Below, in pieces: positions 5,129 through 55,498 of a stretch of 64,000 nt of DNA. Position 1 is the first letter of the stretch. Each line of letters opens with the position of its first letter. The notes under the pieces are model-generated. The model was not told where the DNA came from. It saw only the letters and a list, made by a program, of their open reading frames with translations, and made no database searches. The DNA comes from an uncultured Pseudomonadales bacterium (GTDB lineage: Bacteria; Patescibacteriota; Microgenomatia; UBA1400; PJMF01): assembly GCA_964583795.1 (NCBI GenBank), contig CAZOWX010000003.1, forward strand, positions 23,978 to 87,977, written 5' to 3'. The position numbers and the translations under genes are program-made.

Positions 5129-5139
5129 ATTGTTGATGG

Positions 5140-5180
5140 TGCCAGTCCTAGACAGGTCCGCCTTGGACGGAGAATGTGGG
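5140..5180 (+). repeat. Double-hairpin repeat, degenerate copy (TGCCAGYCCAAGGCTGG-TCCGCCTTGGGCGGAGAGTGTG family)
   Basis: Immediately 3' of the dnaX stop. Matches the copies at 13446 and 50387. Confidence 0.5.
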
Positions 5181-5242
5181 TGGTGTTTTGTTTATCTGAA
5201 AAAAAACAAATACTGCATCGAAAGTAAGAAATCTTAAATGTT

Positions 5243-5313
5243 GTCATCCTTGACCCGATGAATGAACCCGGCCAACGGCCGAGCAAAGCCATCGAGATCG
5301 AGGATCTGACTCT
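5243..5313 (+). repeat. Hairpin MITE-like repeat, long subfamily (GTCATCCTTGACCCGATGAATGAACCCGG...GAGGATC)
   Basis: Shares CGTCATCC / GGATC termini and the GACCCGATGAATGAACC core with copies at 60428, 56956 and 14305. Confidence 0.55.
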
Positions 5314-6407: not shown

Positions 6408-6468
6408 CGTCATCCTGAACAGTCTAGTGAGCTTGCGAACGAGACGGATTCAGGATCTAATGTCAGAA
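6408..6468 (+). repeat. Hairpin MITE-like repeat (CGTCATCCTGAACAGTCTAGTGAGC...GATTCAGGATCTAATGTCAGAA)
   Basis: Stem ATCCTGAA / TTCAGGAT. Related to the copies at 24577 and 55436. Confidence 0.55.
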
Positions 6469-6663
6469 TTCATTTTGTGCAGTCTTTCTGGTGCTTTTGC
6501 CACATAACAAAATAGAGTTATTGTCCAAGATCCTGCAACAAGTATGAATCTTGTGAATCCTGGCTCCTCATATTCCGCTATGGATTCACGATCTGATTGA
6601 ATTGATTAAAAAGTGTATCAGTTTAGTTCAGTCGAGGATGACGTACTTTTCTCTTCAACCATA

Positions 6664-6712
6664 TAACCACGTAACACCATAACCACATAACCACATAACC
6701 ACATAACAACCC
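6664..6712 (+). repeat. Tandem repeat of AACCACAT-type units
   Basis: Direct reading: cataaccacataaccacataaccacataac. Confidence 0.6.
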
Positions 6713-6903
6713 AGTAACTCTTTTAGATAGGTTTTCTTAGTAACAAAGCAACTAAACAACTAAGCAACAAACCAACCAACCAACCCCCACAGCCCCTAGA
6801 CACCGTCATTTTTCTATAGTACTTTGAGTCATTGCGATGCAACGGTTCAACCAGTCATTGCATTCCCTATATACTATATACTAACCCCTACATACTTATT
6901 CCC

Positions 6904-7848
6904 ATGCGACTCATCCTCACTGGCTCCATCGCCATCGATAGAATTCTAAACTTTAGCGGCAAGTACGCTGATGTTATTGCCCCTGATAAACTGCATGTAT
7001 TATCTCTTTCCGTGTTGGTCGATAACTTAGTTGATACTCGTGGGGGAATTGCCGCCAATATTGCATATGGATTAGCGCTACTGGGGGAAAAACCAGTGTT
7101 ATTGGGCAGTGTCGGTCATGATGCGAAAGGGTATATGAATGATTTGGCAGCGCTTGGGATCGATACTTCACATGTTCATTTTTCAAAGAAACCAACCGCC
7201 AGTTTTACGGTGATGACCGATACCGCTGATTGCCAAGTCGGTGGCTTTTATTCTGGCGCGATGAGTGACTCAAGTAGTTTGACGCTCGACGCTTTTGATC
7301 CGGCACGTGATTTTATAGTCATTTCGCCACATGACCCCAAAGCCATGGCGTTGCAGGTCAAGCAAGCGACTGATCGAGGGTTCCATTACTTTTATGACGT
7401 TGGTCAGCAAGTGAGTAATGTGCCTGATGAAGATGTAGTCAATGGAATTGCTAAAGCATCACTACTCATTGTGAATGATTATGAAATGGGAGTAATTGAA
7501 AAGAAAACGAAATTAACTCAAGCCCAGATTGTGAAAAATGTCCCTGTGGTAGTTATTACCTTAGGAGAAAAAGGATCGTTGATTTTTGATCATGGAAAAA
7601 AGCATGAAGTGAGTGCCGTTCCAGTGAAAAAAGTGGTTGACCCAACCGGTGCAGGCGATGCGTTTCGATCAGGATTTTTATTTGGCTATGTTCGTGATTG
7701 GCCAATTGTACAGTGTGCAAAGCTCGGCTCAATTGTGGCTACATTTGCGATTGCACAGCATGGAACACAAGAGCATCACTTTTCCAAAGCTGATATTGAA
7801 AAGATTGCGAAAAAGCAATATAAATTGGTTCTAGGTTCTAGGTTCTAG
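6904..7848 (+). CDS. PfkB-family carbohydrate/nucleoside kinase (adenosine-kinase-like)
   Basis: Ribokinase-like fold with the GG dipeptide and a C-terminal DPTGAGDAF anion-hole motif. The likely start is MRLILTG at 6904 rather than the upstream ORF start at 6832. The last five codons (LGSRF) are encoded by the (GGTTCTA)n array. Confidence 0.75.
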   Translation: MRLILTGSIAIDRILNFSGKYADVIAPDKLHVLSLSVLVDNLVDTRGGIAANIAYGLALLGEKPVLLGSVGHDAKGYMNDLAALGIDTSHVHFSKKPTASFTVMTDTADCQVGGFYSGAMSDSSSLTLDAFDPARDFIVISPHDPKAMALQVKQATDRGFHYFYDVGQQVSNVPDEDVVNGIAKASLLIVNDYEMGVIEKKTKLTQAQIVKNVPVVVITLGEKGSLIFDHGKKHEVSAVPVKKVVDPTGAGDAFRSGFLFGYVRDWPIVQCAKLGSIVATFAIAQHGTQEHHFSKADIEKIAKKQYKLVLGSRF

Positions 7849-7880
7849 GTTCTAGGTTCTAGGTTCTAGGTTCTAGGTTT
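7827..7880 (+). repeat. (GGTTCTA)n heptamer tandem array, about 7.5 units
   Basis: Direct reading. The same array recurs at 47671 and 57984. Confidence 0.8.
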
Positions 7881-8035
7881 GGTTGTTGCTTTGTTATTAA
7901 GAACTACTTACAGACAGATAAAGCAAATCGAAAAGAAGTGGCACTTGTCGCTTGAGGCTTGAAGCATGAAACTTGAAGCCAAAATAAAAGCTTGTAGCTT
8001 TTTTATTAACAAAATTTCTATTAAAAAGGACATTT

Positions 8036-22736: not shown

Positions 22737-23540
22737 ATGAGTAATCAGGTTTCAGGTTCCGGGTTTCAGGTTTCAGGGGATGCAATCCAAGCGCAACCTG
22801 TTGTGAATGGTGATGTAACAGTCAGTAGTCAGTTGTCAGTTGTTAGTGATCCCGCTACCGCTCAAGGTAACGGAGGAGCACAGCAGACGTCAGTCGTCAG
22901 TGGACAAGGGACAATTCAACAACCTAACACCCCAACCACTCTACAATCCATCCCTGATCCAGCTGTGGATGAAGCAGTAGCACAGGCGAAAAAAGTGCAG
23001 GATTTATTTGCGAGAAATGATGCGCTAGCGGCAACTGCGCAAACACCAGTTTCAAGTGTTCCAACATCAGTTTCGCCACTTCCTTCGAATCAAGACAATC
23101 AGATCCTGAAACAAGTTCAGGATGACGGGTCTTTTGCCTCACAATCAATGACAACTGATAACACACAACAATCAGCTAGCGATCAGCCAGCACTTCAGAA
23201 TCCAATAACCAATACCCAACAACCAATACCCAGCTCTGATGATCAAAAAAGCCCGCTTGATATTTTAGAAGAAATCCTGCGCAAAGAAGAAAAAAAACAA
23301 GCTGAAAAAGAAGCGGTTGTATCGCAAGAGGAAACTGAGAATCAAAAGCAACTTGAAGCACAGCAAGAAGCAGAAAATCAGGCATTGATTGAAGAAGCAC
23401 GAAAAAAAATGATTCAAGAAACCGCCACAGAAGAACAGAAACAACGAGACGCCATTCGTCAACAACAAATTGATGCGAATAAAGTACATAATCCGTACGA
23501 GATTCGGCAGTTGGAACATGTGAAGAGGGGGCAGGGGTAG
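22737..23540 (+). CDS. low-complexity Q/S/T-rich protein with a K/E-rich coiled-coil C-terminus
   Basis: The first codons are encoded by TCAGGT-type repeats, so the real start is uncertain. Confidence 0.35.
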   Translation: MSNQVSGSGFQVSGDAIQAQPVVNGDVTVSSQLSVVSDPATAQGNGGAQQTSVVSGQGTIQQPNTPTTLQSIPDPAVDEAVAQAKKVQDLFARNDALAATAQTPVSSVPTSVSPLPSNQDNQILKQVQDDGSFASQSMTTDNTQQSASDQPALQNPITNTQQPIPSSDDQKSPLDILEEILRKEEKKQAEKEAVVSQEETENQKQLEAQQEAENQALIEEARKKMIQETATEEQKQRDAIRQQQIDANKVHNPYEIRQLEHVKRGQG

Positions 23541-23791
23541 TGGATTATCGATGATAGATTATAGAGTGTTTACCCGGCCAACTTTTCTGGCCAACAGGCA
23601 AAAAAAGTTTGACAGGTGGAAAGTAGATTTAGTGATTGGCGACTAGCTATTAGTGGTTGACATGATGAAGATGAATTAAGTAGCAACTGGAAGAGGTTGT
23701 TGGGTGATTGGGTTGTTGTGTTGTTGGAAAACTTTTTATCTGGTCATAACAACACAACTACACAACAACCTAACAACATATCCATATCAAT

Positions 23792-24576: not shown

Positions 24577-24629
24577 CGTCATCCGCTGCAGTCTAGCGAG
24601 CCAGACAGATTCAGGATCTCAAGTCAGAG
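24577..24629 (+). repeat. Hairpin MITE-like repeat (CGTCATCCGCTGCAGTCTAGCGAGCCAGACAGATTCAGGATCTCAAGTCAGAG)
   Basis: Related to the copies at 6408 and 55436. Confidence 0.55.
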
Positions 24630-26413: not shown

Positions 26414-27847
26414 ATGCGCCTGTTTAACACCCTCACCCGAAGCGTCGAAGAAATAGCTCCCATTGCGCCACCAGCATTGGGACTGTATGCGTGTGGTTTT
26501 ACTGTGTACGACTACACCCATCTAGGACATTTACGTAAATACACCATGGATGATGTGTTGATTCGTTCCCTTCGTCATGCTGGATTTCAACTCAAGTTTG
26601 TCCAAAATATTACTGATGTGGGGCATCTCGCATCGGATGCTGATACTGGTGAAGATAAACTGGAAAAAGGGGCCAAAAAATACAATAAAAGCGTGTGGGA
26701 TATTGCCAAAGAGTTTGAACGGTACTTTTTTTATTCGATGGATACCATGGGAAATGTGCGACCGGACGTCAGCTGCAGGGCGACCGAACATATTCCAGAG
26801 CAGATCGCTATGGTGCAAGCACTTGAGCAAAAGGGATTTACCTATGTTATTCCTGGTGATGGCGTCTACTTTGATACGTCGAAAATTGATGATTACGGTA
26901 AGCTCGCTGGTTTCGATCCCAAGATGTTACAAGAAGGGGCGAGAGTGGAAACTGTAGCCGGAAAGAAAAATCCAACCGATTTTGCCCTATGGAAGTTTGA
27001 GCGAGAAGGAGAAAACAGGGCGATGGTATGGGAAAGTCCATGGGGGAAGCGCACTTTTCCTGGTTGGCACATTGAGTGCAGTGCGATGGCAATGGAGTAT
27101 TTAGGGCAGCAGTTTGATATTCACACTGGTGGTATCGACCATATTCCAGTGCACCACACCAATGAGATTGCTCAAGCCGAAGCGGCGACAGGGAAGCAGC
27201 CTTTTGTGCGCTACTGGGTACATCACAATCATTTGATGGTTGAAGGCACCAAGATGAGTAAGAGTTTGGGCAACTTTTTTACAGTTGATGATGTGATCAA
27301 GCGAGGCTTTGATCCGATGGCCTTGCGACTGCTATTTCTTTCCACACATTATCGTTCCCAGATGAACTTCACTTGGGAAAACTTGGCTGGATCCCAGACT
27401 GCATGGAAGACTTTGAGTACAAAAATTACTCAATTTAAACACGAAACAGAGCGCTTGACGCTATCCGAAGAAAAGCTGAAGCAAATTGCTGATTATCGAG
27501 CACGATTCTTTGCCTACATTGAGGATGATTTGCGCACGCCTGAAGCGGTGGCGCTGATGTGGGAAGTGTTTAAATCAAATATTCCGAGCATTGATAAGTA
27601 TGATTTGATTGTGGAATTTGATGAAGTATTGGGGCTGGGTCTGAAAAAACTGGCTGAGACTGCTTCTCAGAGCGTCGAAGTGAATGTCAAAGATCTACCG
27701 GAGGAAGTGCAAAAGCTCTTAGAGCAACGTGAACAAGTGAGAGCTCAGAAGAATTGGAATGAGTCCGATCGCTTGCGTGATGAACTGACAAAATTGGGGT
27801 ATAAGGTGTTGGACACGGGGAGTGGGTTGAAGGTGATGAGAAATTAG
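26414..27847 (+). CDS. cysS: Cysteine--tRNA ligase
   Basis: HIGH-type motif YTHLGH and KMSKS. 477 aa. Confidence 0.95.
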   Translation: MRLFNTLTRSVEEIAPIAPPALGLYACGFTVYDYTHLGHLRKYTMDDVLIRSLRHAGFQLKFVQNITDVGHLASDADTGEDKLEKGAKKYNKSVWDIAKEFERYFFYSMDTMGNVRPDVSCRATEHIPEQIAMVQALEQKGFTYVIPGDGVYFDTSKIDDYGKLAGFDPKMLQEGARVETVAGKKNPTDFALWKFEREGENRAMVWESPWGKRTFPGWHIECSAMAMEYLGQQFDIHTGGIDHIPVHHTNEIAQAEAATGKQPFVRYWVHHNHLMVEGTKMSKSLGNFFTVDDVIKRGFDPMALRLLFLSTHYRSQMNFTWENLAGSQTAWKTLSTKITQFKHETERLTLSEEKLKQIADYRARFFAYIEDDLRTPEAVALMWEVFKSNIPSIDKYDLIVEFDEVLGLGLKKLAETASQSVEVNVKDLPEEVQKLLEQREQVRAQKNWNESDRLRDELTKLGYKVLDTGSGLKVMRN

Positions 27848-27900
27848 TCGTCAGAGGTTGGTTGTGTGCTGTCTGAGTAACAAGTTTCTGCCCCAACGCT

Positions 27901-28331
27901 CGTCATCCCGGCGAAGGCCGGGATCCATTTTTTTGTGTGACTCACTGAGTTGTTTTGCTCTTGCAGATGTCATTTTCATGTCACAATTTTGTAGTTTAAT
28001 CGCAATATGGACAAGAAAGGATATGTCTATATCTTGGCGTCAAAACCGTATGGAACCTTGTACATTGGGGTTACTTCGGATTTGATAGGGCGAGTGTGGG
28101 ATCATAAGCACAATATCATAAAGGGGTTTACACAAAAATATAACGTCCATATGCTTGTGTGGTATCAAGAGTCTGAACTAATAACTGATGCGATTTACAA
28201 GGAAAAGCAACTAAAAGAATGGCATAGAAATTGGAAAATACGACTCATTAAAGAAACAAATCCTTGTTGGAAAGATTTGTATGAAAAAATTATTGAATAG
28301 TACGTGGATCCCGGCCTTCGCCGGGATGACG
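27901..28331 (+). mobile_element. Candidate small mobile element: GIY-YIG nuclease gene flanked by perfect 27-bp terminal inverted repeats that are themselves hairpins
   Basis: Left TIR CGTCATCCCGGCGAAGGCCGGGATCCA (27901-27927) is the exact reverse complement of TGGATCCCGGCCTTCGCCGGGATGACG (28305-28331). The TIRs belong to the hairpin repeat family scattered through the window. Confidence 0.55.
28007..28300 (+). CDS. GIY-YIG nuclease-superfamily protein (YhbQ/UPF0213-like)
   Basis: GYVYIL...GTLYIGVTSDLIGRVWDHKHN...KYN...KEKQLKEW matches the standalone GIY-YIG (YhbQ) pattern. Confidence 0.85.
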   Translation: MDKKGYVYILASKPYGTLYIGVTSDLIGRVWDHKHNIIKGFTQKYNVHMLVWYQESELITDAIYKEKQLKEWHRNWKIRLIKETNPCWKDLYEKIIE

Positions 28332-28443
28332 AAGGTCACTGTGTCAAAAGAATTTATAGATCGCAATGTGATTTTCTTGTCCAAAGCGCAATCAAATTTC
28401 TACGCAACTAGTCAACCCCCCAACGAACTCCTATACTGAAACC

Positions 28444-29103
28444 ATGTCGCATTTTTCTCTGAATTTGCTGAAGTTTGCGGTGTTCTTTCTCCTACTCAAT
28501 GGTGGAGGAATGTGGTTTGTGTTGTATCGTGATCACCAGACAATACAGCGGTTGCAACAGCTCGATAATGCTCCTGCAGTCAAAGTAGAGCCAACTCCAA
28601 CGCCGCGTTCATTCCCGAGCATCGAGTCGCGACTCGATGTGCTGGAAAGTTCTCAAGAAGCGATACAGTCAAGAGTGAATGATCTTGAAGATTCGCAATC
28701 GAAAAGCAAATCAACAAAAACATATACTCAAAGCACGAGCTCAAAAAGCCCCAAAGAGTACACCCTGTATCTCGGTGAAGGCTCTACAGTGAGTCGCGAG
28801 TGGACTACGGTGCAGTCAACCACAATCTCAATTGATACCAGTAAGTACAAGGGCATTACTGCAGTGTACTTCGAGTCAGGTTTGTCGATTATTGGCGGAG
28901 AGGCATATGCACAACTGATTGACGCAGAGTCAGGAGCAATACTCACCAGTCGTGCTTTAGTGAGTAACACACCAAATCCGGTTTGGAAATCGATTCAGAT
29001 TAATTTGGAGTCAGGGAATCACATGTATGTGGTGCAGTTACGTTCATCGAGTGGGGAGCTAGCAACGCTCAGTGGGGCGAGGATACGGATTATGGCTGAG
29101 TGA
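28444..29103 (+). CDS. hypothetical membrane-anchored protein
   Basis: 219 aa with an N-terminal TM helix. Confidence 0.5.
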   Translation: MSHFSLNLLKFAVFFLLLNGGGMWFVLYRDHQTIQRLQQLDNAPAVKVEPTPTPRSFPSIESRLDVLESSQEAIQSRVNDLEDSQSKSKSTKTYTQSTSSKSPKEYTLYLGEGSTVSREWTTVQSTTISIDTSKYKGITAVYFESGLSIIGGEAYAQLIDAESGAILTSRALVSNTPNPVWKSIQINLESGNHMYVVQLRSSSGELATLSGARIRIMAE

Positions 29104-29182: not shown

Positions 29183-29316
29183 TAAACACCCTTCATACCC
29201 AGGAGTAATTCTGGGGATCAAAAGTACTTGTATTGTATCAAAAGCGAGAAAAATCGCCACCCTTGACTGAACTGATACACTCTTCAAATCAGCTCAGTCA
29301 GATCGTGAATTCCTGG

Positions 29317-29331
29317 TCCCGCACTGCGGGA
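29317..29331. repeat. 15-bp palindrome TCCCGCACTGCGGGA
   Basis: One of six copies. The others are at 585, 4538, 12664, 29539 and 47881. This copy lies in a ~75-bp unit duplicated at 29490-29560. Confidence 0.6.
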
Positions 29332-29398
29332 TGAGGAGCATGGCGATACGGGATAAGTCTTCAGTAGTCAGAAAACTTTCTTTATCCCAACCCCGTTT

Positions 29399-29434
29399 GT
29401 CATCCCGAATTCGATTCGGGATCTAAAGTCAGAG
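29399..29434 (+). repeat. Hairpin MITE-like repeat, core copy (GTCATCCCGAATTCGATTCGGGATCTAAAGTCAGAG)
   Basis: Near-identical to 13524 and 55257. Forms an inverted pair with 29667-29704. Confidence 0.65.
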
Positions 29435-29666
29435 CTCTTCATCGAAGCGGGGAAAAACGATCCTTCTAGATATTGAAAAGGTTTTTCAAAAGTGAGAAAA
29501 ATCGCCACCCTTGACTGAACTGATACACTAATTTCTGGTCCCGCACTGCGGGATGAGGAGCCAGAATTCGCAAGATCAATACTGTTGTTTCAGGATCTGG
29601 CATGGGAAGCCCTTGTCGGAAGCCAAAAAAGAAACCTCTCTGCTTCAGTTCTCAATAAGAGTAGAT

Positions 29667-29704
29667 CTCTGACTTTAGATCCCGATTTTCATCGGGATGA
29701 CGAC
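29667..29704 (-). repeat. Hairpin MITE-like repeat, inverted orientation (CTCTGACTTTAGATCCCGATTTTCATCGGGATGACGAC)
   Basis: Shares the extended flank CTCAATAAGAGTA with the copy at 55436. Confidence 0.55.
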
Positions 29705-29792
29705 TTTTTATTTTTCTTGCTTTCGAGTAAGGATTTTTTATTCAACAACACACCAATCCAACCACATAACAACTTTTCGAAAGCAAAAAAAA

Positions 29793-29839
29793 CGTCATCC
29801 TTGATTTTGCATGTTGAACTTTAAATCAAGGATGACGAG
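29793..29839. repeat. Palindromic hairpin repeat (CGTCATCCTTGATTT - 14 nt - AAATCAAGGATGACG)
   Basis: 15-bp inverted arms carrying the family termini. A related fragment AATCAAGGATGGCGA lies at 29943. Confidence 0.55.
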
Positions 29840-29998
29840 TCTAACTATCAACAACTCAACTACCCAACTACCCAACTACTTAACAACGTTTCTATAGCGA
29901 AAAAATCGCCACCCCTGATAACGAAAGTGTCAATTCAAATCAAGGATGGCGAATGTAACTATCCAACTAAGCAACCAAGCAACTGACTAACTACTGAA

Positions 29999-30667
29999 TT
30001 ATTGCCCCGCTGACTTTTTCATCATCTCTTCAAATTGCTGTTTTTCTTCTGCACTCATTCCCTCTTGTGCACTTTCTGCTGCATTTTTCATCATGACACT
30101 AAAATCAGCAAACTTGACGTTAGCTGGTGGTACAAACTCACTGTCACTAACGATTGTCGGATTACAATCTAGTTTCATGCCTTCATTTTCCAGTTTTTCG
30201 ATTTCTTCTTCACTGGAGAAATCAGGAGTCTGAGGGGCATTTTTGATCGCGTCCTTTGCTTGATCTGCAGATTTCTTCTGCTCTTCTTCAGATGGGATGG
30301 CCATTTTGAAGCCTTCATTTTTGGTAGAGTCCCAAGTGTACAGGAAAGACTCGTCTACGATCATCTCACCGGTGGTCGCTTTCTGATCATTACTTGTAAC
30401 GATCCCTGACATGTGCATTTTTTTACCTTTGGCAACATACTGCGAGGTAGTGTTGGTTTTAGTGTCGGTCATAGTGCATTTCAGTCCACCACCAACTTTC
30501 AGTGCATCAGTCCAACTTTTGAACTTATTTGTGTCTGAATTTTGTGCTGCAGTAGTTGGTGTTTGATCTTGAGTGGGAGTCGTGGTGGTAGTAGTTGATT
30601 TGGAAGTACAGCCAGCTAACACTACTGAGCCGACAAAAACGCTGGTAATGAGCGCGTATTTTTTCAT
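29999..30667 (-). CDS. Lipoprotein (hypothetical)
   Basis: Lipobox LAGC after the signal peptide MKKYALITSVFVGSVVLAGC. T/Q-rich linker. The ORF start was trimmed to MKKYA. Confidence 0.6.
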   Translation of the reverse strand: MKKYALITSVFVGSVVLAGCTSKSTTTTTTPTQDQTPTTAAQNSDTNKFKSWTDALKVGGGLKCTMTDTKTNTTSQYVAKGKKMHMSGIVTSNDQKATTGEMIVDESFLYTWDSTKNEGFKMAIPSEEEQKKSADQAKDAIKNAPQTPDFSSEEEIEKLENEGMKLDCNPTIVSDSEFVPPANVKFADFSVMMKNAAESAQEGMSAEEKQQFEEMMKKSAGQ

Positions 30668-47426: not shown

Positions 47427-47663
47427 ATGTCAAAGCTTTTTCAAAAGAAACGTCGAAAAAACTTGCCTCAGGTTAAAAAAGCACCCGCAAGTTTGAGTTT
47501 CGACTACAAAGATGCTCGCACTTTGCAGCGCTACCTAAGTGAACATGGTGCTATTGAGGGGCGCGATCGGACAGGGTTATCAAATAAACAACAACGTCAG
47601 CTATCTCGAGAGATTAAACGTGCTCGACACCTGGGGATGATGCAGTTTACGCAGACACTGTGA
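47427..47663 (+). CDS. rpsR: 30S ribosomal protein S18
   Basis: ...FDYKDARTLQRYLSEHGAIEGRDRTGLSNKQQRQLSREIKRARHLGMM... Confidence 0.9.
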   Translation: MSKLFQKKRRKNLPQVKKAPASLSFDYKDARTLQRYLSEHGAIEGRDRTGLSNKQQRQLSREIKRARHLGMMQFTQTL

Positions 47664-47670
47664 TAGATTA

Positions 47671-47724
47671 GGTTCTAGGTTCTAGGTTCTAGGTTCTAGG
47701 TTCTAGGTTCTAGGTTCTAGGTTT
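47671..47724 (+). repeat. (GGTTCTA)n heptamer tandem array, about 7.5 units, directly after the rpsR stop
   Basis: Direct reading. Followed by GTTTTGGGCGGAGAGTGTAGAGTG, which resembles the tail of the double-hairpin repeat. Confidence 0.8.
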
Positions 47725-47880
47725 TGGGCGGAGAGTGTAGAGTGCGAAATGTGGATTATAGATTGTGGATGATGGATTTTTTGTACTTGGCTTGAGAGAA
47801 TAGACTTGTAGCTTGTCATTTTGACAGGCTCAATGTAAAAGCTTGCTTGCCCGCCGTAGCTTTACTGTGTCCTCTCGTAG

Positions 47881-47895
47881 TCCCGCAGTGCGGGA
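47881..47895. repeat. 15-bp palindrome TCCCGCAGTGCGGGA
   Basis: Direct reading. Confidence 0.6.
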
Positions 47896-47966
47896 CGAAG
47901 TGGGAGCGGAGGAGGGTAGCTTGTATCTCGTCAACTTCCCCTTATTATCAAAAAGAAGAGAAGCTT

Positions 47967-50276: not shown

Positions 50277-50386
50277 GGCGGTTAGTATATAGTATTTTGT
50301 ATATGGTATGTAGAGGGAAGGGATTGGGGAGTGGGGATTATAGATTATGGATATATGGATGGTGGATTGTGGAATGTGCCAGTCCA

Positions 50387-50425
50387 AGGCTGGTCCGCCT
50401 TGGGCGGAGAGTGTGGATTTAGCGA
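50387..50425 (+). repeat. Double-hairpin repeat (TGCCAGTCCAAGGCTGGTCCGCCTTGGGCGGAGAGTGTG)
   Basis: Identical to the copy at 13446. Confidence 0.6.
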
Positions 50426-50474
50426 CTAGGGATTAGTGCTTGACTTGATGAGTGTGGGTTGTTGCAATTGATTC

Positions 50475-50541
50475 TTGCGGCTTGCGGCTTGCGGCTTGCG
50501 GCTTGCGGCTTGCGGCTTGCGGCTTGCGGCTTGCGGCTTGT
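50475..50541 (+). repeat. (GCGGCTT)n tandem array, about 9 units
   Basis: Direct reading, immediately upstream of mreB. Confidence 0.8.
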
Positions 50542-50552
50542 AGAATGGGGCT

Positions 50553-55167: not shown

Positions 55168-55228
55168 GTCATCCCCCGTCTCTTTGGTGGTCAGGCCTGA
55201 TGTCCATCGGGGGATCTAAAGTCAGAGC
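55168..55228 (+). repeat. Hairpin MITE-like repeat (GTCATCCCCCGTCTC...CCATCGGGGGATCTAAAGTCAGAGC)
   Basis: Stem ATCCCCCG / CGGGGGAT. Confidence 0.5.
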
Positions 55229-55256
55229 ACTTACTCTAAAGCAAGAAAACTAAAAA

Positions 55257-55295
55257 GTCGTCATCCCGAATTCGATTCGGGATCTAAAGTCAGAG
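55257..55295 (+). repeat. Hairpin MITE-like repeat, core copy (GTCGTCATCCCGAATTCGATTCGGGATCTAAAGTCAGAG)
   Basis: Near-identical to 13524 and 29399. Confidence 0.65.
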
Positions 55296-55435
55296 TTCCC
55301 GATCGAAAGTGCAATACCCATTGTTATCCGGCGAACTCGTGCCCTAAGGGTAAAACAGGATCTATCTCATCGAACAGAAAATGCAACTCAAAAGCAAAAA
55401 AAAAGATCTGTTTCAATTCTCAATAAAAGTACCTA

Positions 55436-55498
55436 TCTGACTTTAGATCCTGAATCCGTCTTGCTCATATCTTCGCTAGACTGTTCAGGATGACGACT
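55436..55498 (-). repeat. Hairpin MITE-like repeat, inverted orientation (TCTGACTTTAGATCCTGAATCCGTC...CTGTTCAGGATGACGAC)
   Basis: Inverted relative to 55257. Related to 6408 and 24577. Confidence 0.55.

Follow-up and report, generated by a model that had tools for sequence, protein, structure and literature searches.

Across bacteria, a single small gene, ssnA, is found in association with the Neisseria transformation sequence (NTS), CGTCATTCCCGCGMAVGCGGGAATCYRG, which contains the dRS3 sequence ATTCCC-N8-GGGAAT (Chenal et al., Nat Commun 2025; 16:2388; PMC11893778). A degenerate form, the Ssn-related motif (SRM), occurs near 71% of the homologues of this gene and on both of its sides in 42%, and the Ssn family has been described as mainly that of Pseudomonadati though widespread (PMC11893778). 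Here we describe an ssnA homologue bracketed by an exact inverted pair of such motifs in a bacterium of the Patescibacteria (candidate phyla radiation, CPR), within a 64,000-nucleotide stretch of contig CAZOWX010000003.1 (positions 23,978 to 87,977). This whole stretch is referred to below as the window, and positions are counted from its first letter.

The biochemistry of the system is best known from Neisseria meningitidis, whose SsnA is a 94-amino-acid (aa) protein of CDD family cd10448 that binds the NTS as single-stranded DNA only and cuts a few nucleotides (nt) upstream of it, being inactive on the complementary strand, on duplex DNA and on RNA (PMC11893778). The substitutions Y6A, Y17A and E64A each abolish cutting; among the nucleotides of the motif, the C directly 3' of the palindrome weighs most for binding and the three nucleotides 5' of it for cutting. 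Stem changes that keep the structure render the Neisseria enzyme inactive, and three further homologues cleave beside their own motifs. Deletion of ssnA in N. meningitidis leads to five-fold more transformation by NTS-bearing DNA, an effect that point mutations in the NTS abolish. The authors liken the NTS-ssnA-NTS arrangement to an insertion sequence (IS), by analogy with IS200/IS605 and REP/BIME and as a hypothesis only (PMC11893778); no later paper showing Ssn mobility was found in the literature. A first-pass annotation of the window, made from its letters alone, had proposed a functional link between a GIY-YIG nuclease and the hairpins around its gene, while noting that such a role was not established for proteins of this type. 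The link agrees with the binding and cutting of flanking hairpins, as single-stranded DNA, by homologues; the caveat is outdated, since the role was established for the Ssn family in March 2025 (PMC11893778).

Judged by its sequence, the locus very probably represents the typical SRM-ssnA-SRM layout, an ssnA gene between its cognate SRMs. Established here are membership of the Ssn family, the match to the motif, the architecture and its conservation across phyla, the covariation of the stems and the absence of the unit from relatives; the window's SsnA is presumably active, cutting some of the hairpins and playing a role in the CPR cell. The features of the locus are as follows.

28007-28300, plus strand: ssnA homologue, a 97-aa single-domain GIY-YIG nuclease of the Ssn family (Pfam, identity to SsnA, aligned residues, AF2 model)
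27900-27928, plus strand: upstream SRM/NTS-like hairpin, the left arm, tCGTC-ATCCCGGC-gaag-GCCGGGAT-CCAt followed by seven T (exact repeat, SRM-pattern match, 8-bp fold, terminator-like score)
28304-28332, minus strand: downstream SRM/NTS-like hairpin, the right arm, inverted with respect to the left one (exact repeat, SRM-pattern match, fold)
27884-28412 (approximate), unstranded: extra DNA relative to the related genome L092, comprising the SRM-ssnA-SRM unit with about 17 bp to its left and about 80 bp to its right (alignments, orthology of the flanking genes)

The 97-aa protein, well below 150 aa and with a single domain, matches the Pfam GIY-YIG profile with an E-value of 9.6e-13 (profile positions 1-77 of 78; protein residues 4-78). 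This is its only significant Pfam domain, and NCBIfam yielded no match. It shares 56% identity with the 94-aa SsnA of Neisseria gonorrhoeae (E 1e-36; 90 of 94 residues aligned, 96% coverage) and 54% with a second Neisseria homologue (E 9e-41), so that, with the N. gonorrhoeae ortholog as query, the open reading frame (ORF) lies within the published definition of the family (BLASTP against Neisseria SsnA, E < 1e-10, at least 75% query coverage). That ortholog, a 94-aa ORF starting MQPAVYILASQRNGTLYIGVTSDL with NTS copies on both sides, was taken from 2.17-Mb records of a plasmid collection, which are filed as plasmids yet are chromosome-sized, and its length is the one published for N. meningitidis SsnA. 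Residues Y8, Y19 and E66 align with the catalytic Y6, Y17 and E64 of SsnA and are invariant in 27 homologues, whose alignment also shows the C-terminal motif KxWxRxWKxxLIxxxNPxWxDL that typifies the Ssn group. The AF2 model (pLDDT 94.5) finds GIY-YIG folds as its top PDB matches, namely UPF0213 protein BH0048 (1ZG2, the best), Slx1, EF2693 and the N-terminal domain of UvrC; by sequence, the PDB returned no match at E <= 0.01, and no Ssn structure was found by that route. The first-pass label 'YhbQ-like' was loose, YhbQ being 24% identical over 66 aa (E 1e-3) against 56% for SsnA.

Homologues number in the thousands at 60-67% identity, the named ones including Dehalococcoidales, Doudnabacteria, Massilia, Deltaproteobacteria and Pedobacter. 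A phage collection contained no homologue of the protein; a plasmid collection gave 33 matching records, 32 of them typed as non-mobilizable, the 2.17-Mb N. gonorrhoeae records being among the matches. Within the 64 kb of the window, tblastn with the 27 homologues detected one ssnA gene and no second or decayed copy.

The two arms that bracket the ORF are exact inverted copies of each other. The sequence CGTCATCCCGGCGAAGGCCGGGATCCA occurs at 27901-27927 (plus strand) and, without a mismatch, at 28305-28331 (minus strand), and has no further match in the window at up to three mismatches (shuffled sequences expect 0). The right arm starts at 28305, leaving a 4-nt gap after the stop codon, which ends at 28300. 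As single-stranded DNA, both arms fold into an 8-bp stem with a 4-nt loop (-9.7 to -11.8 kcal/mol; z-scores of -3 to -4), and the exact form of this stem is found nowhere else in the window. The first-pass annotation had described all three properties, a perfect 27-bp inverted repeat around the ORF, a right copy beginning 4 nt past the stop codon and a hairpin within each copy, and each description is accurate, the identity as read directly from the sequence even extending to 28 nt (27900-27927 and 28305-28332). The published SRM pattern, HGTCWYN(0-2)YYVSBRHN(0-5)WNVSBRGN(0-2)RNCYNB, matches the window at 27901-27928 (plus) and 28304-28331 (minus) only, against 0.19 matches per shuffled window, which places at least one SRM within 500 bp on the 5' and on the 3' side of the gene. 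The left hairpin is also the sole terminator-like call within 27700-28500, and since a run of seven T comes after its stem it resembles a terminator of cysS, the gene upstream; such use may be a secondary role.

The same arrangement recurs at homologous loci in distant phyla. We sampled 80 such loci, one genome per species, from phyla including Proteobacteria, Chloroflexota, Planctomycetes, Nitrospirae, Verrucomicrobiota, Cyanobacteria, Omnitrophota, Saccharibacteria and other Patescibacteria, and scored hairpins that read GTCAT, a stem of at least 6 pairs starting from the A, and then C. A plus-oriented hairpin lies within 300 bp upstream at 59 of the 80 loci and a minus-oriented one within 300 bp downstream at 57, both being present at 47. 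Hairpin density is 4.3 per kb near the gene and 0.32 per kb farther out, a 13-fold difference, the median distance from the matched region being 26 nt on the upstream side and 14 nt on the downstream side. The 91 distinct 24-nt flanking hairpins give the consensus YGTC-ATTCCCGC-GAAR-GCGGGAAT-CCAG, in which G7, T8, C9 and C30 are invariant, partly by construction, because the detector demanded both GTC and C. Likewise, the figure of 99.6% paired stem positions is partly circular, the hairpins having been chosen for pairing; the compensatory pair types are not circular, and changes on both sides are seen at five of the eight stem pairs, with all four Watson-Crick types at two of these. Left and right hairpins also go together: at 15 of 27 loci they carry the same 8-nt arm, against 5.2 expected (maximum 12 in 2000 permutations).

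Some individual loci show further variation. At five mutually unrelated ones (L048, L057, L059, L067 and L011), the two flanking hairpins differ by the same compensated pair, one side having ATTCC.../...GGAAT and the other ATCCC.../...GGGAT; the ssnA-flanking hairpins of the window are of the ATCCC type. In a metagenomic proteobacterium-like lineage (L082, L083 and L084), the ssnA homologue lies between a histidine kinase gene and its sigma-54 response-regulator gene, and the spacers on both sides of it vary in length among samples, which suggests a varying number of hairpins.

Related hairpins are also dispersed through the window itself. The heptamer GTCATCC is present at 30 sites on the two strands, against 6.1 expected (shuffle maximum 11), and a rough ORF map, which assigns 83% of the window to coding sequence, puts 21 of the 30 between genes. 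About 23 of these sites open an element of the form (AAAAAGT)CGTC-ATCC...stem-loop...GGAT-C, which essentially upholds the earlier count of more than 20 related short hairpins. The hairpins keep GTC on the 5' side of the stem and C on its 3' side, the positions of importance in Neisseria, so that the repeat has an orientation. The stems themselves vary, from short hairpins of 24-25 nt, such as GTCATCCCGAATTCGATTCGGGATC with its three copies, to compound hairpins of 42, 49 and about 67 nt. After GGATC the bulk of the elements end with a conserved tail, TAAAGTCAGAG, where the ssnA-flanking pair has CCA; two more elements, at 11544 (plus) and 16213-16254 (minus), resemble the ssnA pair downstream of the stem, reading GGGATCCATTT. 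In 8 of 10 adjacent hairpin pairs (less than 450 bp apart) the GTC ends face outward, as they do around the ssnA ORF, and such pairs enclose ORF-less modules of about 150-300 bp. An Rfam scan of the whole window at gathering thresholds found no family. Modules, clusters and solo elements are listed below.

1979-2126, unstranded: ORF-less hairpin-bounded module of 148 bp, with a 49-nt SRM-like hairpin (plus) and a 24-nt one (minus), GTC ends outward
6409-6642, unstranded: hairpin-bounded module, with a 49-nt SRM-like hairpin (plus) and a degenerate GTCATCC end (minus)
11544-11691, unstranded: hairpin-bounded module, its left end, GCCGGCGAAAGCCGGGATCCATTT, being the nearest relative of the ssnA-flanking hairpin and its right end carrying the tail TAAAGTCAGAG
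12421-12707, unstranded: hairpin-bounded module, with compound hairpins of about 67 nt at both ends
29399-29836, unstranded: hairpin cluster, a module at 29399-29701 (plus/minus) followed by a palindromic element at 29794-29836
55168-55494, unstranded: cluster of three hairpins, 55168-55216 (plus), 55260-55284 (plus) and 55446-55494 (minus)
5243-5306, plus strand: solo compound SRM-like hairpin
13525-13549, plus strand: solo SRM-like hairpin GTCATCCCGAATTCGATTCGGGATC, with the same core as at 29399 and 55260
16213-16254, minus strand: solo 42-nt SRM-like hairpin, ending GGGATCCATTT as the left ssnA hairpin does
23102-23126, minus strand: SRM-like hairpin GTCATCCTGAACTTGTTTCAGGATC, in frame within a 267-aa ORF
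24578-24622, plus strand: solo SRM-like element with an imperfect stem and the tail CAAGTCAGAG
56999-57030, minus strand: solo GTCATCCTTGACCC-type end of the compound-hairpin family
60613-60679, minus strand: solo 67-nt compound SRM-like hairpin, a close copy of 12421-12487

The element at 29794-29836 is a perfect palindrome, CGTCATCCTTGATTT...AAATCAAGGATGACG, that shows the CGTCATCC end on both strands and is in effect a pair of half-sites that face outward and enclose no module. The hairpin at 23102-23126 lies inside a conserved 267-aa ORF (22737-23540, plus strand), where it reads in frame as ...NQILKQVQDDGS... and occupies a variable linker that differs, and is shorter, in the 47% identical ortholog of the relative L091. 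The same hairpin, GTCATCCTGAACTTGTTTCAGGATC, also flanks ssnA homologues at Alphaproteobacteria and Sulfurovum loci (L024, L054 and L060). In-frame insertions of palindromic elements are known from Rickettsia, and the in-frame hairpin of the window resembles them.

Comparison with relatives provides a view of the site without the unit. The gene upstream of it is cysS, and the nearest relatives of its product, CysRS, are 79-80% identical and come from Patescibacteria, with Pacebacteria among the named matches. Five CPR relatives were examined, of which two, L092 and L093, keep the same gene after cysS (59% and 43% identity, respectively, to the window's 219-aa downstream protein); in the other three, L091, L094 and L095, a different gene follows, so these are uninformative. 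The gap between cysS and the next gene measures 49 bp in L092, which has no hairpin there, 128 bp in L093, where the minus strand carries a solo hairpin, CTGTCATTCCGAATTTATTTCGGAATCC, and 596 bp in the window. The first-pass annotation had recommended a search for empty sites in related genomes, and the cysS junction supplies an empty one as well as one with a single hairpin. A multiple alignment of these intergenic regions had no meaning between the coding anchors; by pairwise local and anchored alignment, the L092 intergenic sequence aligns to 27861-27883 and 28413-28441 of the window and so bounds the extra DNA approximately. Near the edges of this extra DNA, at 27891-27898 and 28418-28425, there is a direct repeat of 8 bp, CCCCAACG; it could be due to chance, which is roughly 1% for one 8-mer in the span. 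Its left copy stops 2 nt short of CGTCATCC, close to the predicted SsnA-type cut. The right copy lies about 90 bp from the right hairpin, and no clear target-site duplication was found at the unit.

About 8 kb from each relative contain almost no such hairpins, and the GC content of ssnA is 35%, against about 46% for the neighbouring genes, both of which fit an acquisition in the window's lineage accompanied by hairpin expansion. A near-identical contig, L001, whose protein is 99% identical, has the same insertion and a hairpin at either end. Two metagenome scans with the 219-aa downstream protein, alone and as an alignment, retrieved no closer relative. These comparisons suggest that the SRM-ssnA-SRM unit was inserted between cysS and its downstream neighbour in the lineage of the window.

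A mechanism can be proposed from steps that have been shown for homologues and that would extend to the window copy. When single-stranded, CGTC-ATCCCGGC-loop-GCCGGGAT-C would fold into a hairpin; the 97-aa GIY-YIG protein would bind this hairpin in a strand- and orientation-specific manner and cleave the strand by hydrolysis, a few nucleotides 5' of CGTC. Given the inverted orientation of the flanking motifs, one cut per strand is predicted, each just outside the unit. The approximately 20 other GTCATCC...GGATC hairpins are most likely further substrates of the same enzyme, or relatives of its substrates, arranged in NIME/BIME-like intergenic mosaics.

Several points weigh against the identification of the locus as an ssnA gene with cognate SRMs acquired in this lineage. 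The comparison with SsnA was made with the N. gonorrhoeae ortholog, the authors' own reference being CAX49033.1. About 20 other hairpins of the window fall outside the published SRM pattern, and the 3' tail of the bulk hairpins, TAAAGTCAGAG, differs from that of the ssnA-flanking pair. Since the Neisseria enzyme is sensitive to stem sequence and the bulk stems differ, cutting of the bulk hairpins by the window's SsnA is uncertain. Finally, with a CysRS that is only about 79% identical to those of the relatives, the absence of the unit at this junction could conceivably reflect loss in the relatives.

One extension of the SRM-ssnA-SRM identification is that the unit, which the first-pass annotation suggested may be autonomous or a founder, is an autonomous, IS-like or homing-like mobile element, in which SsnA nicks the end hairpins in single-stranded form and host replication or repair completes the process, the ORF-less modules being its non-autonomous (MITE/NIME-like) relatives. 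This proposal is compatible with the identification, because it only adds a claim of mobility, and we hold it to be possible. In its favour are the empty (49 bp) and solo-hairpin (128 bp) sites at one cysS junction, the CCCCAACG direct repeat near the edges of the extra DNA, the exact 28-nt inverted repeat and the outward orientation that 8 of 10 adjacent hairpin pairs share with the ssnA unit. The GC content of ssnA below that of its neighbours, the 60-67% protein identity among very distant phyla, the many homologues on very short contigs, with L001 bounded by hairpins, and the unrelated contexts of homologues, for instance between a histidine kinase and its response regulator, point the same way, and the same hypothesis was raised by Chenal et al. 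(PMC11893778).

However, only one ssnA copy is present in 64 kb, and the modules are without ssnA remnants. The hairpins are not clean element ends, since the extra DNA runs about 80 bp past the right one; they lie on opposite strands, unlike the ends of IS200/IS605, and the ends of the modules carry a subterminal TAAAGTCAGAG that differs from the ssnA unit. To our knowledge, GIY-YIG enzymes hydrolyse DNA and are not known to carry out strand transfer. The phage collection holds no homologue, and 32 of the 33 plasmid-collection records are non-mobilizable. Identical proteins at several loci were also sought as a mark of recent transposition, but protein P0075 (11 contigs) and protein P0081 (8 contigs) are each always at one single locus. 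That the unit is, or recently was, self-mobilising by way of its GIY-YIG single-strand endonuclease, with the ORF-less modules, including in-frame gene insertions, as its non-autonomous offspring, is possible, though less likely than not.

A second possibility, also tentative, is that the system has been domesticated to serve as a restriction or recombination modulator for single-stranded DNA, as in Neisseria, and that the flanking hairpins just mark or regulate its own gene. The five-fold, NTS-dependent effect of ssnA deletion on transformation in N. meningitidis (PMC11893778) favours this, as do the dispersed, intergenic positions of the window hairpins and the single chromosomal ssnA in a housekeeping neighbourhood. 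Yet the function has been shown in one genus only, the window contains nothing that bears on DNA uptake, and the Ssn system is not a conserved trait of the lineage, because the sampled close relatives are without the gene at the site and without the hairpins. Domestication and a selfish element are not mutually exclusive.

That the hairpins are ordinary transcription signals unrelated to the nuclease, the left one a cysS terminator and the right one an mRNA-stabilising or terminator hairpin after the ORF, is highly improbable: the CCA and seven T after the left hairpin, the sole terminator-like call in the region, would suit it, but the right hairpin has no T run on the coding strand, GTC on the 5' side and C(C/T)A on the 3' side are conserved across phyla while the stem covaries, unlike in terminators, hairpins are enriched 13-fold and with an orientation bias around homologues in 80 genomes, and homologues directly bind and cut them (PMC11893778), so that a terminator-only explanation was rejected on the conserved flanks, the stem covariation and the cross-phylum association with the nuclease.

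The window contains several other repeats. Intergenic tandem heptamers occur as (GGTTCTA)n at 7813-7894, 47643-47752 and 57957-58052 and as (CTTGCGG)n at 50460-50550. Sequences that repeat every 8 nt, of the type AACNACNN and A/C-rich on the plus strand, are present at 6657-6792, 23740-23788, 29736-29999 and 61502-61541 and often adjoin hairpin modules. A second repeat family of about 48 nt, GTGCCAGCCCAAGGCTGGTCCGCCTTGGGCGGAGAGTGTG, consists of two adjacent short hairpins and is found at 5135-5182, 13441-13488, 50372-50419 and 58720-58767; two of its copies are 96% identical, and its sequence is unrelated to the SRM family. A third hairpin family, GGTCCCGCACTGCGGGA, at 576-607, 12655-12686, 29308-29339, 29530-29561 and 47872-47903, is sometimes nested within compound SRM-like elements.

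What the window adds to the known system is a CPR example of ssnA with an exact inverted pair of hairpins, about 20 further hairpins outside the published SRM pattern, including one in frame within a gene, and a series of empty, solo-hairpin and occupied sites at one cysS junction, which provides a small piece of evidence in favour of the idea that ssnA spreads its own hairpins. That the pattern misses these hairpins suggests that SRM counts are underestimated in AT-richer genomes. A small GIY-YIG ORF with CGTCAT[TC]CC...GG[AG]ATC hairpins on both sides can now be classified as Ssn/SRM. Since Ssn enzymes are under development as site-specific cutters of single-stranded DNA, a divergent pair of enzyme and site could be a useful reagent. 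Self-mobilisation, if true, would define a class of prokaryotic transposable element not yet demonstrated, an idea that is already that of Chenal et al.

Among known systems, the GIY-YIG homing endonucleases (I-TevI, I-BmoI and the phage Seg/Mob enzymes) share the catalytic domain and an association with selfish or mobile DNA, but they have a separate DNA-binding domain, cut double-stranded DNA and reside in introns and phages, whereas the protein of the window is a 97-aa single domain encoded in a chromosomal intergenic setting. Escherichia coli YhbQ/UPF0213 (PDB 1ZG2, 1YWL) has the same fold and size; with 24% identity over 66 aa (E 1e-3) and the Ssn C-terminal motif left unaligned, it shares the superfamily and not the family, and reading the sequence around E. 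coli yhbQ by eye revealed no SRM-type hairpin. REP/BIME-RAYT and IS200/IS605 TnpA offer a parallel in organization, a small nuclease gene flanked by hairpins that are recognized as single-stranded DNA (here by homology) and dispersed intergenic mosaics. RAYT and TnpA, however, are HUH/Y1 transposases that act through covalent intermediates, whereas the protein of the window is a GIY-YIG hydrolase outside the HUH/Y1 class, and the end hairpins of IS200/IS605 lie on one strand, the window pair on opposite strands.

The Neisseria dRS3 repeats and NIMEs have a 20-bp palindrome-type core, ATTCCC-N8-GGGAAT, comparable to ATCCCGGC-N4-GCCGGGAT here; in both, inverted copies bound short intergenic modules and repeats cluster between genes, though in another genus and phylum and with other module sequences. 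The nearest match is the Ssn system (PMC11893778), which shares a single-domain GIY-YIG protein of about 95 aa with the catalytic residues kept, the NTS-ssnA-NTS layout and many dispersed intergenic copies, and whose NTS, CGTCATTCCCGCGMAVGCGGGAATCYRG, differs from the flanking hairpins of the window by one compensated stem pair (T-A to C-G) and one stem position. It differs in that the host of the window is a CPR bacterium and that only the two flanking hairpins fit the SRM pattern, the other 20 or so having AT-richer or compound stems (24 to 67 nt) and the TAAAGTCAGAG tail. The locus of the window belongs to the Ssn/SRM system as published in 2025, and that publication already contained the mechanistic analogy drawn by the first-pass annotation.

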